A DNA stretch of 61,882 nucleotides, the filler included, from Globobulimina sp. (Eukaryota): assembly GCA_003354225.1 (NCBI GenBank). It is 11 parts of 11 records of this genome, joined end to end, with 100 filler letters (N's around TTAATTAATTAA, not from the genome) between each part and the next. Parts side by side here need not be neighbours in the genome. Positions count along the whole stretch, not along the records: positions 56,361 to 61,882 come from PIVH01000528.1; 10 more parts are not named here. The stretch is one strand, 5' to 3'. The notes beneath the pieces are model-generated. The model saw only the letters and a list, made by a program, of their open reading frames with translations, ran no database searches and was not told where the DNA came from. A program made the position numbers and the translations under genes. Positions 5,650-61,882 of this stretch are shown piece after piece (within the stretch, counting starts at the first letter, position 1; each line of letters opens with the position of its first letter).

Positions 5650-8161
5650 CAACTCACGTTTACTGGTAAATATCTCAAATAATTGCATTATCTCCGATTT
5701 TAAGGTGCTCATTAATTTAATAATAGAGGGGGCGGCCGATCGGCTGATCATCTTATTATTCTCCGTAGAATACCATTGATTCATTAACTGTGCATAGCCG
5801 GTATACAATGTAATCAATGTCTTATACAAATTGCTGAATTGGATTAAAAAGGAGCCATTGGTATGGCCGCCACACGAAAAGCATACCCCTTTATAAATGC
5901 GTATTAAATGTATGAATTTATTGATATTTTCTTCATTATTAAAGTTATCGATGCTCAATAACTGTTGATAGCGGATGTTGGGAGTGGTCAATAGCTGTTC
6001 CACCAAACGCGAAGCTTTGCTAAAATCTCTCTTTTCGTGGGCAATCACGCAACTCCACGTTTTGTATAAATTTTCAATCTGCTCCGTGCTCAATTTCTTG
6101 CACTGTTGGCCATTATTGATGCCACAAATCAACTCATTGAGGAAGATCTCCTTATCGTTTTCTTGGACTTTGAGGAATTTGTGCCCGCATTTGTGGCAGA
6201 TCTCGGATAAGGTCTCGATAGACATGTCCTGGACACCCGGATGTTTCTCGGCTAAAAATTCAATCAATTTACGAACCACTGTTTGTAAAAATTTCCAATG
6301 TTTTTTTAAAAAGCGAGGGTATTTCCGGACGACGTACATAATGCACGAAGCAATGATGGCTTTGGCATTTTTCGATTGCTGTACTTCGCATAAACTCAAT
6401 AATATTTTTATCACAACCACCAAAAAAGACTTCTCCACATCGGCGGGCATGCTGCCCGCCACTGCGCCGATACTCCAACACAAACTATTTAATTCAGCAA
6501 AGAATTCCTGCTCATTTTGATAGACGTGGTTATTTTTCTGATTGTTACTAAATTGCGTCAATTTGTCACCAATTACACTGCGAGTATCGGCCGGGTCGAT
6601 ACTGGATAAGATGTACAATATTTTGCTCATTTGTTTGTGTAAAGTTAGCATTAACGTGTCTTTCATCTCTTGTTTAACCACATTGTTGTTATCGTCGCGG
6701 ACCACCAACACTTCCTTGGGTCGCGGCAATTTCTTCATTAATATGATGCGTAGCTCGTGCAAGCCCTGTTTGTACAATTCATAGCGTGGACTGTTATTGA
6801 TATCATACGCCTGCGCACTATTACTATGATAATTGACTAATACATTCTTTTTGGGTAAGGATTTTTGCAGATCGCGCACTAAATACTCCCACAAATCACA
6901 ACATATTTGTAATAACGTCTCATTTTCTGCGGCGGTCACATTTAATAATAATTTCAACGCCGCTTTAAGTCCTTCACGGGAGCCATTGTTATGTTGTTCT
7001 AATATTTTATGGTGATATCGCAGGAAATTATACAAAAAATTGGTTAAAGTCTGAATGAATTGGAAATTATAGTCATTGTTACAAATATAAGCATCAATAT
7101 TGGTGTTCATGGCAATATTGCAATCACTGAATGTTTTGCGTAAAACGGTTAAAAACATATTGACTAATTTCTCATTACATTTGTCGGTGTGTTGATTGTC
7201 AAATTCTGCCTTTTTGATGCCACCGATTTCCACCAAACACTTTAATGTGGACACTCGATAAGATTGAATACTGAAATATTTTAAGGTTAACGCCTCGATT
7301 AATTGCGACGCGAATATGATTGGAATTGGTATCCAATGAATGGCTAAAAATTTGCCTAAAGTATGCAATGTGCATTCTATCAATCGTCGATCGGAGGAAT
7401 TTTTAAGTACAAACATGCATAGTTCAAATACTTTGGACAATTCCCTGAAATATTACGTATTTATATTTATATATTGGTGCAAGGATATTAATCCGAGTGC
7501 AAATTAAAATGGCTAAAATAACTAAACTTTGTTAGATTGTCCTTGAAATTGTCGACTTGCTGATGAGATAAATGAAGGGATTGGTTTTCAAAGGCTTCTT
7601 CGGATAACAATCGTAATAAATTCATGTTATTTGCACATACAATTTCAGAGCGCTTAGAGACTTCAACCACTTGCGTTATAAAACCAGGCCAATTATGCGG
7701 CCATTCTCGTTTTATTATTTCAATTAAAACTGTATTTAATTTAGTTAAAAATGGCGCAATCTCTTTTAAATTGCTATCTTGCGATAGCTTTACGACTAAG
7801 GATTCTATGAAGCCTTTGATTCCCTTTTTGCTTTGTGGTGGCAATATTTTCCATCGAGTTTTGATACAATTTTCTAATATGGATAAAGCTATCATTTTAG
7901 ATTCAATTTTCGAGGATTTCTGGATTATATCAGGGGCTTTGATCCATGCATTTGGTGATTGTTCAAATTGTGCCAAAATATCGTGAATCTATAGATATAT
8001 TTTACATTTTATAAAGTATTTTATTTTTTTTTATTTTTTTTTTGCTTTACCTGACGATTAGAGCTTCCACTATAAAATGAGGTTACAATTTGGTCAAATA
8101 ATTCTACATTGAAAGGAACAGTCGAGTCCAGAATGGATTGGGGATTCATATTGGAATTCAT
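5650..8161 (-). CDS. XPO1: Exportin-1/CRM1, 3' truncated; exons 8161-8051, 7988-7528, 7444-contig end
   Basis: IKTRWKILP, IIKREWPHNWP, NNMNLLRLLSEE, PKEVLVV, LNSLCWSIGAVAGSM, YPRFLKKHWKFLQTVVRKL, HPGVQDM; GT-AG introns 8050-7989 and 7527-7445 keep the frame. Confidence 0.95.
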
Positions 8162-55200: not shown

Positions 55201-56260
55201 GTATTACTGACGACGAAGAAGAGTTACAACAAGAATATGTATCAAATATAGTGCAATTAATTAAGAAAAATGCAAATCCGCGAGTTGCTATTATCGAATG
55301 TGGCAATCAATATGTCCATAACCAAGATATGGTGGTGTTACCATTAGATGACGAGTTGTTGAATAATTTAACAGAGGACCCATTTTATAGTGAAATGAAA
55401 GATGTATATGTTTCCATAGCAAATAGACATGAATATAGTAAGGATTTTGCCACCACGCCAAAGGTACGGTGCTTAAATCAAGCAATTGATGAGTTTGGAG
55501 ATAGCCAACGGCATAAAAAAATTGTATTATTATCAAATTGCATTCATCATAGTGATAGCAACGACGATATAGATGATGAAGTGTGTGCATTTAAAGATGA
55601 ATTATCAGGAAAAGATAATATTGAAGTTATTATTATTAATATTGGTACACAGTTACAATATGGAATCAAATCAGATACATATCAGTGTTTAAATGACGAT
55701 TTTAATAAATTATTTGTTTATGAAGATTTTGATTTGTTGAATAAAAATGAAAATGCATTATTTTCAGTCCGTGATGAAATTTGCCAGTTACCGACGCCAG
55801 CGCCCACTCAAAAACCTACCATTAAACCAACACGGGCACCAACAGAAGGTCCAACATCATCGCCAACACAACCTCCGACAGATAAACCAAGTTTGGATCC
55901 TATATATTTTCTGATTGATTGAAATAAAATAAAATCAATATAAATATATATAGCTCGATTACCAACAAACGAACCAACAAGAAAACCAACCAGCAAACCA
56001 AGTAAATGGCCAACAGCACGACCAACAAATAAACCAAGTGAGCAACCAACGGATTCTCCAACTGAATCACCCACAGATTCGCCAATATTGTCACCAACCG
56101 GCAGTCCAACAAAACAACCAACCAAGAGACCGACGGGAAAGCCAACTGAAGCGCCCACAGAAGCGCCCACCGCCGCACCCAATCAAAGACCAACGCATTC
56201 ACCAACCAATAGACCCACAAAAATACCAACCTCTAAACCAACCCATGGCCCAAGTGAATT
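52274..56260 (+). CDS. Secreted adhesin/mucin-like protein: signal peptide, C-type lectin, VWD, two vWA-like domains and Pro/Thr-rich repeats; multi-exon, 3' truncated
   Basis: MQLLNLIFIPFAVLIRTHA; W..A...C....LASIHS, CWIGL, EP, WND..C; CQIYGDPHFDTFDG, CGLCG.YD....ND; DIIFIVDTGCG and DIVIIVDASCG; PT.(K/E/R)PT repeats. Confidence 0.88.
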
Positions 56261-56360: not shown

Positions 56361-56856
56361 AAAAACATCGATAATTGTTGATATTCAAGATACTCATTTG
56401 AGACAACAATTAAATATTGAAAAGATGGATGGTTTTAAAAGTGATGAATTATGGATGCAACGCGTTTTTAGTGATTATGACCATTTACGATTCATAAAAA
56501 CACAAAAACGGATTGACGAAAATACAAACAGTAATCGAGCAAATTCAAAAAATGGGAGAAATGATGATAAAATACCGAATTATCGTCAACCTTTAAAACG
56601 ATCTGGTTTAGGCCCACAAGAAAGGATGCAACGATCCAAAAGATTACATAATTGGATGAATAGCACACGGCCAAGAATTAAAGATCAATACAAATCGGAT
56701 TTTAATGGAGTCTGTGCGGCCCACCATATGAATGATGAACAATGTTCAGTTAAAAATGGCGTGAAATGCAAAGCTGGAAATAAATTAAGAAGTCATCTTT
56801 GTCTTTGCGGTGAATCATCGCATACTATTCCACAATGTAACAAAATATTTAAATAA
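56361..56856 (+). CDS. Gag-like ORF, C-terminal part with Cys/His zinc-binding motifs (5' truncated)
   Basis: VCAAHH....C......C.......HLCLCGESSHTIPQC directly upstream of RT. Confidence 0.7.
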
Positions 56857-56900
56857 TATTTATACAGTGATATATATGAAGACTTAAATTTGTAATTTAT

Positions 56901-58712
56901 TTGTCATTGAATTATTGTTTCCCTTCAACGGAATCTAACGTCCCTTCTTTGTTCTGTTTATACACTCTTTATTCAGAGAATATATTACCAACTTTGAGGG
57001 TAATCGATACAGAATGTGCTAACTTACTCCAAAAGTTAGTAAATTTGTGGAAAAGTCCGCCAGAAATTAATCATCATTTCAATATAAATTTATTCCGTGA
57101 CTACCTAAGTAACCATCCAAATGGTGAAATAGAGATTGAATTCATTGAGAATGGATATCCATTATATTTAAAAAATAGAGATCCAACAAAATTATGTAAA
57201 GTAATCTCCAATATAGTCAGAGACAAACGTGATTTGAAAGCGATATTGACAAGAATTGTAAAAGAGGCACGAAAAGCATATATAACACAAACAAAGAGTC
57301 AGTTACATTATAACTTGAACCTTTTATGTGTTCCTAAGAAGAATAATGATACGAATTTAATGACTGAGATTCGTGTAGCAAGACATGGTTCTTTTGCTAC
57401 ACAGAGATCTGTTTCCATAAATAAGTTAATTTCGAAGGAGAAATGCAAGATGCCCACACTTCCAAATATCCATAAATATGTAAAATTACTTTTAGAATAT
57501 AACTATGTGTCTCTACGTGATTTAAAAGATGCTTTCAGACAATTAAATTTAGCATCAATTGATGCTCAATATGTACAATATTGTATTTTTGGTTTGGCTT
57601 TCAGAGATTTGAGACAATCGTATGGCATCGCCTCAGCAGCAGCAAATTGTCAGCAATTTGGTCAAATACTAATATGGATCCTTAAAAATAAATATTTACA
57701 CAATATACAAAGGGACAGAATCCTTGTCCACATTGACGATTTTATTTTAGCTGCACAGTCTGAAGAGGAAGCCATTTTTCTCGCCAATAGATTTGATAAA
57801 ATGTGTAGTGACTTAAATGTTGCTGTTTCACATGCAAAGGATGAGAATGCGGTCTATAAAGGTGTTGTACATGGCATTGGTTTTAATTTAAAAACAAAAC
57901 ATGTACATATACCTAGTCATAAATATAATGAATTGATCAAAGGAATAAGTTTAATGATTAAGTATCGATATGCAACAGGAAGAGCGCTCGAATCTGTTTG
58001 TGGGAAAATAATGCATTGGTCCCAATTACGGAAACCTGCCAAAATTCTTTGCTATCGATTACTACGCTTAATACATGAAAAAATCAGAGCAAATTCGAGG
58101 TTAAAAAATAAAATATTTTGGATACCTGACCCGATTGTTCGTGATTTGAAATTCTGGCTACAATATGCCACATTTATGCGTAGAGTAACCATGAAATCCG
58201 TCATTCAACAGCCCTCAATAACAATTACTGGAGCTACAGATGCGAGCAATATCGGTGGTGGCTTCATAGTGGGTTCGTTTTATGGTGCATACGAATTTTG
58301 TGATGAATCAAATATAAATGGCATAAATCATAGGAGAATGCATATAAATTATCAAGAAGCACATGCAGTAATTATGCTACTTCACAATTATCGTCATATG
58401 CTTTCTGGCCGTCAATTATTACTATATATTGATAATACGTCGGTAATGTATAGTATTTATAAACATTGGGCTGGAAGTGAAATATTAATGGAATACATTC
58501 AGGAAATTGTGCTTTTAATGTGTATATATTCAATTGGTTTGAGAGTTGAATTTATACCTTCAACTTTTAATGGTTTGGCAGATTCTTTATCTAGATTTGA
58601 TTGGAAACGATTTTATAATGAGATTGATTGTTATAATCTTCCTATAAATGATAAAGAGACATTGCTTGAATACTACCCAACTTTGCGACTTTTGCACAAA
58701 TATGATCTTTAA
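56901..58712 (+). CDS. Reverse transcriptase + DIRS-type RNase H
   Basis: VPKK, SIN, DLKDAFRQL, YG..SA, HIDDF, HGI, L..VCGK; RNase H TDAS..G.G, HINYQEA, IDN, N..AD.LSR. Confidence 0.95.
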   Translation: MSLNYCFPSTESNVPSLFCLYTLYSENILPTLRVIDTECANLLQKLVNLWKSPPEINHHFNINLFRDYLSNHPNGEIEIEFIENGYPLYLKNRDPTKLCKVISNIVRDKRDLKAILTRIVKEARKAYITQTKSQLHYNLNLLCVPKKNNDTNLMTEIRVARHGSFATQRSVSINKLISKEKCKMPTLPNIHKYVKLLLEYNYVSLRDLKDAFRQLNLASIDAQYVQYCIFGLAFRDLRQSYGIASAAANCQQFGQILIWILKNKYLHNIQRDRILVHIDDFILAAQSEEEAIFLANRFDKMCSDLNVAVSHAKDENAVYKGVVHGIGFNLKTKHVHIPSHKYNELIKGISLMIKYRYATGRALESVCGKIMHWSQLRKPAKILCYRLLRLIHEKIRANSRLKNKIFWIPDPIVRDLKFWLQYATFMRRVTMKSVIQQPSITITGATDASNIGGGFIVGSFYGAYEFCDESNINGINHRRMHINYQEAHAVIMLLHNYRHMLSGRQLLLYIDNTSVMYSIYKHWAGSEILMEYIQEIVLLMCIYSIGLRVEFIPSTFNGLADSLSRFDWKRFYNEIDCYNLPINDKETLLEYYPTLRLLHKYDL

Positions 58713-58827
58713 TGAGATTATAGCCACAAACTTGATCAGTTTTATTGTACTATTAATATTTAATGATGAGCATTAAAAATGTGATTGATTTGATATTTGT
58801 AACTTCTATGAGCTATATATACAAAAT

Positions 58828-60253
58828 ATGACCTTGTATATACACACAGCTCAGTTGCCCATCCAACACAGTAACAGTTTGTGTGTAGCTCGCTATAAAA
58901 ACCTTAGACAAATATCAAAAAACCTCTCTTTTTTTGTCCTGGTCTCAGAAACAAAGTGTTTCTTTTATAAAATGTTTGTATCTATAATTAGATTTGCAAA
59001 GAATTTCTGTATGGAATCGTCCTTTTGCAAAACGTGATATTCAAACAACCAAAAGAATATTAAGTGATATTTTTAGATCAAGAAGAATATCTACCAAATG
59101 TAACTATATATCAGTTTTAAAAGATTGGTGGGGATATTGTATTGAAAATGGAGCAGATCCATTTACCCCACAGATTAATCCAACAATTGCAATTTATTGG
59201 CAATACGATAGAACCCTACGTTTAGGTTCATGCAATTCTCACTCAACATGGTCATCTGCACTATCATGGTGGGTTAAAGCACATGGACGTACACCAATTT
59301 ATTTTAGGGATGATTTCTATAGTAATATTCATGGAAATATGGTTGGATTATATTCAAAACAAAGAAAAGAGAGAAAACCGATTAAAATTCAATGGTTGGT
59401 AAATTACCTCAAATTGAAAAATATTGTACCACTTACATGGGAATTTTGTACATTGGATGAGTTAACTTCAACTTATCTATTAATTATGGCATTTTTCACA
59501 ATAAGTCGACCGGCCGAGATTTTATACACAGATAGTACAGAAAATCCGGCCTGGGAGATAATTACAACTGGTTTAAGATGGGGTGATATTACCATACATA
59601 ATGTGAATAAACCATATAATCGGAGATATAAAAAAATATTAATTCATTGGTATAAAAACCAGGAATTTCGTGATCAGCCAAAGGAAATTTATATGGCACC
59701 ACCTATTTGCGATAACGTTATGTGTCATTGCCGGATTTTGGATTACTTTCAATTGTATTTGATTATATTACAAAAACGAAAATTATTAATCCAACAATTA
59801 CGAGCTAAATCCTCACAATCTAAGAAATTCAAGAAACGTTTATTGAATTTAGATATCAATTCGACAAATTATATATTTGTAGGATCAAATGGAGTGATTT
59901 GGAAACCATCAAAGCTTTCGGAATTAGTAAAGGATTTGATTTTAAAATTGAAAATTCCGAATCCTAAATTTTATCCATCATATAGTTTCCGTATTGGTGC
60001 AACATCTTTATGTCATTTACAAGAAATTGATTTATTAAAATTGATTCGATTCGTAGTTTGGTCAATTAAGAATTTACCCCATGTGTCAAATAGATACATA
60101 AATTTCACGATACAACAATTAAGAATCCTACCATTTGAAATGATACATGGTCGAAATCGACCTGGTGGGAGAAATATTGATAAAAGTAAAGGAAATTTAA
60201 AGACTTATAATTTATGGGAAGGTAATTTATGTGAAGATTTATTTCACAGCTAA
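58828..60253 (+). CDS. Tyrosine recombinase; main ORF 58994-60253, tentative first exon 58828-58870
   Basis: T..NY N-terminal helix, AFF..SRPAE, KNQ, YSFRIGATS, W, RYI. Confidence 0.9.
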
Positions 60254-60829
60254 TTAATTGATCCATTGAGGGAGATAAATGATAGTGATGCAAATTCATG
60301 AAATGATATTTTTTTAAACAAGACTTACAAACTTAATATTTCGACAAACTTGTTTGTTGAAATAATCTTGTCTGGATAACAGAAGTGCGATATCAAAATA
60401 TGGCACTCTTTTCACAACACTCAGGGGCACACAGGGAGGAGATCTGTTATAGAAACGATTTGTTTATATACAAAAACACAGAGTTTCTATATTGATCAAC
60501 CGGAGAATAAAGAACCGACAACTTCGTTCTTCGGATATTTACCCGTATGAGTCAGATCATTGAGTTTGTGAAATGAGTGGCCTTTTAGAGTAAAGTTCAA
60601 TCCTTTACCATTTCTAAAATATATATTTTTATGTTATTACAATTTTAATATGTTTGATATTGCGCTCTGTAATCATCATTGGTATTGAATATTTAATGTA
60701 TCATAATTTAAATATTATTATTGTTTCTTGTGTTTTTTATTTAGAATTCGTTTTTAAAAAACTCCAAGTACCAATCAATAACCACTCAGTCAAGAACACG
60801 GTCAACAAAGTCAGAAACACTTAGTCGCA

Positions 60830-61570
60830 ATGAGTGATATTGCTAATCTTGTTTATGTGGAAGGAACACATGTTCCGCCAAATAAATTTCAATATCCCAA
60901 CGATCACGAATTTGCAGATTATTACGTAAAGATAAAAGCTGTGAAATCAGCAACAAATCGTGGTGATTTAGCAAGCGAAACCATTGCTGCTATAGCAGCG
61001 TTGGTGAAATCGAAGGTGATTTTCCCGTATGGGAACAGAAAAGGTTGGGATGAGGATTTGCAAGGTTTGAATGATGCATATTTTAAAGCATCGGCATACG
61101 AAGCAAATCACCAAGACAATCCTCCTCCGACTCATTATGACATTGTCACGCTATTAGCCGACAACAGATTGTTCGACGAGGACTTACCAACGCGCAGACA
61201 AGCAAACTTTGATAGACGCAGAGAACATTTTGATTTAGATCTTGCTTTGGATGCGTGGAAATTCCCAAATCCACCAGAAGTTGCATGCGTTGTTGGCAGA
61301 GCGGAAGATTCGTCGTCAGATCCTGAGGCTGTAACACATGATGATGAAATTGAGCATGATAAGGATGACAAGGAAGAGGAGAAAGTGTCGAATGATGCGG
61401 ATCAGTCATTCTTTGAATCCAAGGATGAAACGATTGAGATTATATCGGATGAGGAGGATATTGAAAATAAACAAGACATCCCAATCCGTGATATGTTCAA
61501 GGATTCAAAATTTGTAAAGAAGGATAATTTTTTTTTTTCAAAGAAAGAACCAATTAAATATGGCATCTAA
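60830..61570 (+). CDS. Hypothetical protein with acidic C-terminal half; possibly ORF1/gag N-terminus of the retroelement
   Basis: 246-codon ATG-initiated ORF co-oriented with the element; no motif recognised. Confidence 0.55.
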   Translation: MSDIANLVYVEGTHVPPNKFQYPNDHEFADYYVKIKAVKSATNRGDLASETIAAIAALVKSKVIFPYGNRKGWDEDLQGLNDAYFKASAYEANHQDNPPPTHYDIVTLLADNRLFDEDLPTRRQANFDRRREHFDLDLALDAWKFPNPPEVACVVGRAEDSSSDPEAVTHDDEIEHDKDDKEEEKVSNDADQSFFESKDETIEIISDEEDIENKQDIPIRDMFKDSKFVKKDNFFFSKKEPIKYGI

Positions 61571-61882
61571 ATGTAATTAAATATATTCCACATCGAATCA
61601 ACACTAAAAAGGAAACGATTGGAGCAAAAACATAATAAAGAAAACAAAAATGAGGTTTTAACACACTTTTACACAACACAATAACGGCACAAATAGATAT
61701 GAAGCAATTAGAACAATTTTCTCATATCCAATACATTGTCGATTCTTCACTAATTAAATTAATTAATTGTTTATGGTTTTATTGAGCGATTAAAGAAAGT
61801 AATTAATTATCGATCAGATTTGATCAGAAATATTGCGAAAGCGAGGAAATTAAAACAATTAAATTATAATCAAGTCCGTGGA

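Follow-up and report, generated by a model that had tools for sequence, protein, structure and literature searches.

How can a retrotransposon make its reverse transcriptase (RT) and its recombinase when neither open reading frame (ORF) has a start codon ahead of its conserved region? The question is raised by contig C528 (PIVH01000528.1), which closes a 61,882-nt stretch of DNA from Globobulimina sp. (assembly GCA_003354225.1); the whole of this stretch is called the window here. What C528 shows is mainly the 3' two-thirds of a retrotransposon of the order DIRS, ~7 kb in length, with a tyrosine recombinase (YR) and with four non-overlapping ORFs, of which only the first, ORF0, has a start codon. 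An earlier note on this DNA had proposed that the RT and YR ORFs need spliceosomal splicing to be expressed, and this is borne out by conserved acceptor sites and by purifying selection on coding sequence that no AUG precedes. The partners joined are very probably other than those it named: a single phase-1 donor at the end of ORF0 would serve three alternative acceptors, which open gag, RT/RNase H (RT/RH) and YR. The observation is real and conserved, and the splicing plan is apparently new to the literature.

Results

The element and its copies

The window is made of eleven contigs of ~5.6 kb with N spacers between them, and the feature lies on C528 (window 56361–61882). C528 begins inside gag, so that ORF0 of the window copy is missing along with the rest of the 5' half of the element, and no contig extending it upstream was found among the contigs of this genome. 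The features of C528 are:

56361–56856, plus strand: gag-like ORF, 3' half, with a C-terminal Cys/His zinc-knuckle cluster at about 56716–56838; 72% identity to the same part in copy C79.
56857–56976, plus strand: gag-RT spacer, ending in the RT acceptor CAG (56974–56976), phase 1.
56977–58712, plus strand: RT/RNase H exon of 579 codons, with VHIDD at 57726 and DASN at 58239; first ATG at 57360.
58713–58991, plus strand: RT-YR spacer, ending in the YR acceptor TAG (58989–58991), phase 1; it contains an ATG mini-exon (58828–58870) that is not conserved.
58992–60253, plus strand: tyrosine-recombinase exon of 421 codons, with ISRP at 59501, YSFRIG at 59981 and NRYI at 60089; first ATG at 59339.
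60254–60651, plus strand: 3' untranslated end with conserved motif blocks (e.g. 60417–60444), terminating in TTTTAATAT.
60647–60651, plus strand: AATAT core, common to both element ends and forming the head-to-tail junction with the next copy.
60652–61882, plus strand: the next element in tandem, of which only the 5' part is present, with a candidate 63-nt intron in the 5' untranslated region (5'UTR) at 60682–60744 and ORF0 from the ATG at 60830.

The contig stops before the ORF0 donor of the second, tandem copy. When that copy was compared by eye with its close sister C3505, its ORF0 was seen to be broken near 61530 and to resume near 61810, after ~280 nt of unrelated sequence. Many diverged relatives are present in the genome (65 matches, 65–84% DNA identity). 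The near-complete copies C79, C191, C231, C233, C170 and C84 each have four separate ORFs (ORF0, gag, RT/RH and YR), of which ORF0 has ~520–540 codons and its own ATG.

Acceptor sites open the RT and YR frames

The earlier note had pointed to acceptor-like sites at 56976 (CAG) and 58991 (TAG), both in phase 1, and had called for a check of the GT/AG sites among copies. Both acceptors are conserved. In protein-anchored alignments a YAG (Y, pyrimidine) stands at the same phase-1 position at 19/19 YR starts, and at 17/17 RT starts, likewise in phase 1 (15 of these in register and 2 a codon further down); the background rate of YAG is 1.0–1.6% per base. At the gag starts, where low complexity made it necessary to place the sites manually, there were 18 YAG and 1 AAG of 19. 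Identity around the RT and YR sites is 33–34% in the 60 nt upstream and 52–59% downstream, and upstream of the acceptors the closest AG is at least 16 nt off and pyrimidines are in excess. The residue encoded across the acceptor differs between copies (D, E, A or G), so the constraint acts on the DNA. Judged from these alignments, the RT and YR acceptors are above chance.

As had been claimed, no AUG precedes the conserved region of either ORF: the first in-frame ATG of RT, at 57360, is codon 129 after the acceptor (VPKK is at 57330), and that of YR, at 59339, is codon 117. Codons 2–76 after the acceptor, which in both ORFs precede the first Met of the window copy, gave nonsynonymous and synonymous differences per site (pN, pS) of 0.20 vs 0.65 for RT (n=10 copies) and 0.25 vs 0.58 for YR (n=17 copies), after 6 RT and 1 YR copies had been excluded by hand (indels, frameshifts, short contigs) and 1 more YR copy had proved too short; in the 25 codons before the acceptors pN was about equal to pS. 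An in-frame ATG lies upstream in 0/17 RT and 2/19 YR copies. Under such purifying selection the RT and YR stretches before the first Met must be translated, despite the lack of a preceding AUG.

A probable single donor at the end of ORF0

We examined the copies that retain ORF0 for the partner of these acceptors. Conservation of ORF0 ends at I-Q, and there the DNA reads CAAG/GT (slash marking the splice junction), in phase 1, in 17/17 copies, with G at +5 in 16/17 and T at +6 in 17/17 of these ORF0 ends; GGT accounts for only 37% of Gly codons. A column-by-column scan of ORF0, gag, RT and YR gave the ORF0 end as the sole invariant donor-like context; the remaining GT-rich columns encode Val, Cys, Trp or Gly and have variable flanks. 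The phase of this donor matches that of the gag, RT and YR acceptors. The joined frames are open in four copies (gag 333–352 codons, RT 578–579, YR 421–435), while three other copies have stops or frameshifts in them; the predicted introns are of 330–518 nt, about 1.5–2.0 kb and about 3.5–3.9 kb. One donor thus most likely gives rise to three products, ORF0-gag, ORF0-RT/RH and ORF0-YR.

Distant relatives and a junction in a database protein

In subfamilies at 30–40% identity a phase-1 GT was counted from the alignment at 13/15 ORF0 ends (C114 and C491 being without a donor call); the acceptors were found in 19/20 copies for RT (C4308 being without one), as 11 YAG and 1 AAG of 12 for YR, and as 14 YAG and 4 AAG of 18 for gag. 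Fifteen loci from other samples, including loci of 54–62% GC, have the same acceptors wherever the ORF start is present.

One distant relative, L190, keeps the same donor together with the conserved motif behind it (described below), and carries four GT-AG introns of 52–64 nt in ORF0 and gag:

L190 354–409, 653–704, 1098–1161 and 2020–2080: introns absent from the window's family.

Their removal leaves stop-free frames, and the gag profile then scores 92 bits vs 59 and 29 for the pieces. Read from the sequence, these introns represent intron gain or loss within a retrotransposon. L190 keeps its introns, so the element must be copied from unspliced RNA, as the earlier note had supposed of the template.

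The ORF0-gag junction is seen in one database protein, P0109, a 1175-aa entry of EukProt under the name of the foraminiferan Nonionella stella, which runs in ORF0 as far as Q795 and continues with D and then with the gag sequence, knuckle included (profile E 1e-26); this join is the pattern predicted for ORF0-gag in the window's family. Among the 31 ORF0 relatives, 18 others read through Q/H-G into donor-type sequence and then stop. The RT and YR junctions would be formed from the same donor in the same phase.

Several points weigh against a single ORF0 donor with three acceptors. The window's own element is without the donor on its contig. Measured against the usual consensus the donors are weak (GTTTGT and, for the distant subfamilies, GTCTAT or GTTTAT), and the host introns with which they were compared are only 4 unverified ones, all beginning GTT. 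A YTRAY branch motif is found in only 6/19, 8/17 and 6/19 acceptors. P0109 comes from a EukProt set (EP01083) that is probably transcriptome-derived, but it may be a gene model; the EukProt main text names no data set. Fusions of ORF0 to RT or YR were not found among long RT proteins (1011–2885 aa) and long YR proteins (761–2170 aa), in searches that were weak, and 0/96 RT relatives carry an ORF0 tail. Intron-less genomic copies, which the earlier note had suggested looking for, did not turn up at any of the 17 ORF0 ends, and one degenerate ORF0-gag junction pattern gave 0 matches.

Run X1 on C84 (L038:400–7600) showed flat depth across the spacers and 8 joints, 0 of them at predicted sites; this run behaves as DNA and is uninformative on splicing.

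Other ways of expressing RT and YR

It is unlikely that the acceptors are used with some other partner, be it a donor in the 5' leader, a trans-spliced leader, or a route via part of the gag or RT exon. A conserved donor-like G/GTATTG does lie ~35 nt inside the 5' end in 9 matched ends, and only the gag junction has been seen in a protein; however, the leader has no conserved ATG (it is absent in C191, C84, C4893 and C2829), so that such mRNAs would lose 116–128 constrained codons. A route via gag or RT would call for a donor there, whereas no invariant one is present in either, and the phase of the ORF0 donor is common to all three acceptors.

Non-AUG initiation, by internal entry or by reinitiation, on an RNA that is unspliced or subgenomic, with RT and YR made without splicing and the AGs used otherwise, has a still smaller chance of being correct. 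Near-cognate codons are available in the open frame at 12/17 RT and 8/19 YR starts, and an RNA junction was not seen for RT or YR. At the other starts (5/17 RT and 11/19 YR), however, there is no ATG, CTG, GTG, ACG or TTG from the upstream stop to 8 codons past the acceptor. The AG, moreover, is invariant and is preceded by 16 nt or more without another AG and by an excess of pyrimidines.

The donors named by the earlier note fare slightly worse again and are very improbable. It had proposed that G/GTGAAT in gag (GT at 56810) splices to RT, giving gag-RT, and that YR starts from an ATG exon at 58828–58870 followed by GTAACAG. Both joins are indeed in frame in the window copy, the second over 121 nt to give 435 codons with a terminal stop only, and some ATG with a phase-1 GT occurs in 6/14 RT-YR spacers. 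The gag GT, however, is present in only 11/18 copies, in varying context, and is replaced by GGA or GGC in 7/18; it belongs to a Gly codon of the zinc knuckle, and the knuckle is conserved beyond 56810, so that splicing there would cut it. An ATG exon with a phase-1 GT is impossible in 8/14 spacers (5/19 YR copies, with no detectable RT stop, were left out of this test), and the candidates in the other spacers are not mutually homologous. Both proposed donors thus fail, being no better than chance, where both acceptors hold, and the products are not gag-RT and a YR with a short leader.

Frameshifting or readthrough joining gag, RT and YR, or ORFs that are decayed overlapping ones, can be dismissed: ORF overlap is common in DIRS-order elements (PMC3266345, PMC9210276), but the spacers vary from 91 to 451 nt for gag-RT (n=15) and from 109 to 279 nt for RT-YR (n=14), with all three frame offsets, which rules these joins out, and they carry in-frame stops (within 20 codons for 13/17 RT and 15/19 YR). 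An overlap is absent from every copy examined, in line with the idea of the earlier note that splicing takes the place of overlapping ORFs.

As a separate observation on the RT-YR spacers, a short AGT..CCATG-like motif at window 58854–58864 recurs in the unalignable spacers of C191, C479, C2639, C6351, C6435 and C10565.

Element ends and the motif behind the donor

Twelve 3' ends terminate at TTTAATAT and are flanked by unrelated sequence or by the next copy; 5' ends begin at the same AATAT core, and a target-site duplication is absent at the ends examined. The head-to-tail junction is found on six contigs (C528 of the window, C479, C4893, C2521, C2829 and C191). Terminal inverted repeats were not found in 6 near-complete copies, two of them (C79 and C84) complete at both ends and with flanking sequence; nor were split direct repeats (A1-B1A2B2) found in C79 or C84, although collapse of short reads could still hide some. 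A 119-nt repeat in C191 is the contig overlap and not a split repeat. Positions 1–119 and 7028–7146 of this locus (L032) are identical and delimit one 7027-nt unit, which may represent either circular DNA or a tandem array that has been collapsed.

A tract of ~24 nt at 60380–60403 is complementary to the 5' terminus of the element (best site, z -6.0); this tract, 272–283 nt ahead of the 3' end, was among the top 3 sites for pairing with the 5' terminus in 4/7 tests, and no consistent complementary partner for the 3' end was found in 8 tests. The 60380–60403 tract is possibly half of an internal complementary region. Within the 5' end there is a candidate 5'UTR intron, similar to the one in Penelope, formed by the conserved G/GTATTG and a YAG 55–70 nt further on (window, C79, C191, C84, C1229, C231, C170 and L188).

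Directly behind the ORF0 donor lies a conserved motif of ~80 nt (within the first ~90 nt, e.g. L031:2589–2680), which is kept in the distant L190. A hairpin drawn there covaries, with pairing in 94% of cells, compared with 33–44% in slid controls, and with 25 double-sided changes; the structure was drawn from the same sequences as those tested, which favours the pairing score. Retroviral packaging signals are located behind the major donor, and the post-donor hairpin could by analogy mark unspliced RNA. Long-range pairing of the motif with the 3' end ranked with the top sites in only 2/6 copies and was dropped.

Elsewhere in the window, 55891–55953 is a probable host intron (63 nt, phase 1, GTTTGG donor) in a gene with Pro/Thr repeats; three further candidates start with GTT.

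Proteins of the element

The full gag-like ORF has ~340 codons and a conserved Cys/His cluster (C79 and relatives); the name gag rests on position and motif, and the window fragment is without a Pfam match. Among 28 aligned relatives Pfam RVT_1 was matched in 27/28 and RT_RNaseH in 28/28 at E<=0.1, and the RT/RH protein of the window itself matched both below gathering scores (RVT_1 E 7e-6, RT_RNaseH E 1e-3). The Pfam scan of 28 proteins gave no methyltransferase family, and the RT/RH ORF terminates 44 codons past the start of ADSLSR.

The 421-codon ORF had no Pfam recombinase match (Phage_integrase); in a Foldseek comparison its AlphaFold model matched Cre (E 7.3e-6) as well as further YRs, and R172 and Y368 are invariant in 14 relatives, in an alignment from which 3 intended rows were left out. 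The standard form of one recombinase motif is H-x-x-R; at its position (window 59981–59998) the element has Y-S-x-R, and in four relatives from other samples Lys or Gly takes the place of the Arg.

For ORF0 there was no match in metagenome loci, no convincing Pfam family, and no known fold in fold searches (best Z 5.5, predicted template modelling score 0.34). Searches of the Atlas with ORF0 and the gag part, and sequence searches of the PDB, gave no match.

Discussion

Proposed expression and replication

We propose that the host spliceosome would join the 5' splice site at the ORF0 end to one of the three phase-1 acceptors, giving ORF0-gag of ~860 aa, ORF0-RT/RH of ~1100 aa or ORF0-YR of ~950 aa, while unspliced RNA would encode ORF0 alone and also serve as the template for reverse transcription. 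Competition among the acceptors would set the amounts in the order gag > RT > YR. ORF0 may act as an assembly tag through which the enzymes are co-packaged, and the hairpin just 3' of the donor might be a packaging or export signal confined to unspliced RNA. Integration would be by the recombinase through the AATAT core, often head-to-tail.

Relation to known elements

The element is of the order DIRS, with RT and RNase H, a YR, a gag-like ORF upstream of RT and no target-site duplication. Its layout is nearest to Ngaro, yet when layouts and published definitions were compared, the terminal repeats of no superfamily were found here. Ngaro-like gag carries a Cys/His finger, as does the gag of this element. 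The superfamily definitions are those of PMC4157794, PMC8547959 and PMC3266345. Ngaro-like elements share the order gag, RT/RH, YR and the lack of a methyltransferase, and protist examples exist (PMC8547959); they have split direct repeats, whereas none were found here in copies with both ends, and the present element differs further in its extra ORF0 of ~520–740 codons and in AUG-less downstream ORFs that are opened by conserved acceptors. DIRS1-like elements are similar in YR integration without target-site duplication, in a short A/T core at both ends and possibly in having a short stretch inside the element that is complementary to its 5' end; in contrast to their definitions (PMC3266345), there are here no inverted terminal repeats, methyltransferase, ORF overlap or consistent 3'-complementary tract. 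VIPER/TATE elements have the order gag, YR, RT/RH (tables of PMC6681497), whereas YR is last here. In DIRS1-like and PAT-like elements a methyltransferase follows RNase H; it is absent here.

In foamy-virus splicing and the one-donor, many-acceptor splicing of retroviruses the leading exon carries no coding sequence and every ORF starts from an AUG of its own, whereas here a large coding exon would be fused to every product, and there is no long terminal repeat, integrase or env. What is shared with foamy virus is a pol made from spliced mRNA, with splicing in competition with unspliced RNA (PMC6669543). In Ty1/copia (EVD) gag and in Cer1 CERV, alternative splicing sets protein ratios or makes an export factor (PMC5580714, PMC10309623), and the enzymes come from unspliced RNA; here both enzymes seem to depend on splicing. 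Penelope-like elements have spliceosomal introns that survive retrotransposition, including a 5'UTR intron (PMC8557442), but they have another RT clade and endonuclease and no alternative acceptors for separate enzymes.

The portions of PMC3783388, PMC3266345, PMC6681497, PMC9210276, PMC4157794, PMC8547959 and 10.64898/2026.05.21.726589 that were covered hold no passage on introns or splicing of YR retrotransposons, and the splicing in PMC7192593 concerns, in the part covered, a reporter intron only. A literature search, which did not extend to Repbase notes or to the subscription reviews of Poulter and colleagues, returned no description of this expression plan in the text that it covered.

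Significance

The expression of AUG-poor or overlapping RT and recombinase ORFs in DIRS-order elements has been little studied, and the present family provides a definite answer, precise to the junction. It would be a retrotransposon whose two enzymes both hinge on alternative choice of the 3' splice site and have an N-terminal domain in common with the structural protein; it would be a second retroelement group, beside the Penelope-like elements, that keeps spliceosomal introns; and its ends would be without the repeats that current models of DIRS replication require. We lean, if only slightly, towards a wider reading: that this is an undescribed YR superfamily, probably spread in foraminifera and without inverted or split terminal repeats, in which the host spliceosome appends ORF0, a large and novel domain, to a nucleic-acid-binding protein, an RT and a recombinase, replacing frameshifting and protease processing, and which copies only fully unspliced RNA marked by the hairpin, so strictly that ordinary introns in its coding exons can be gained and kept.

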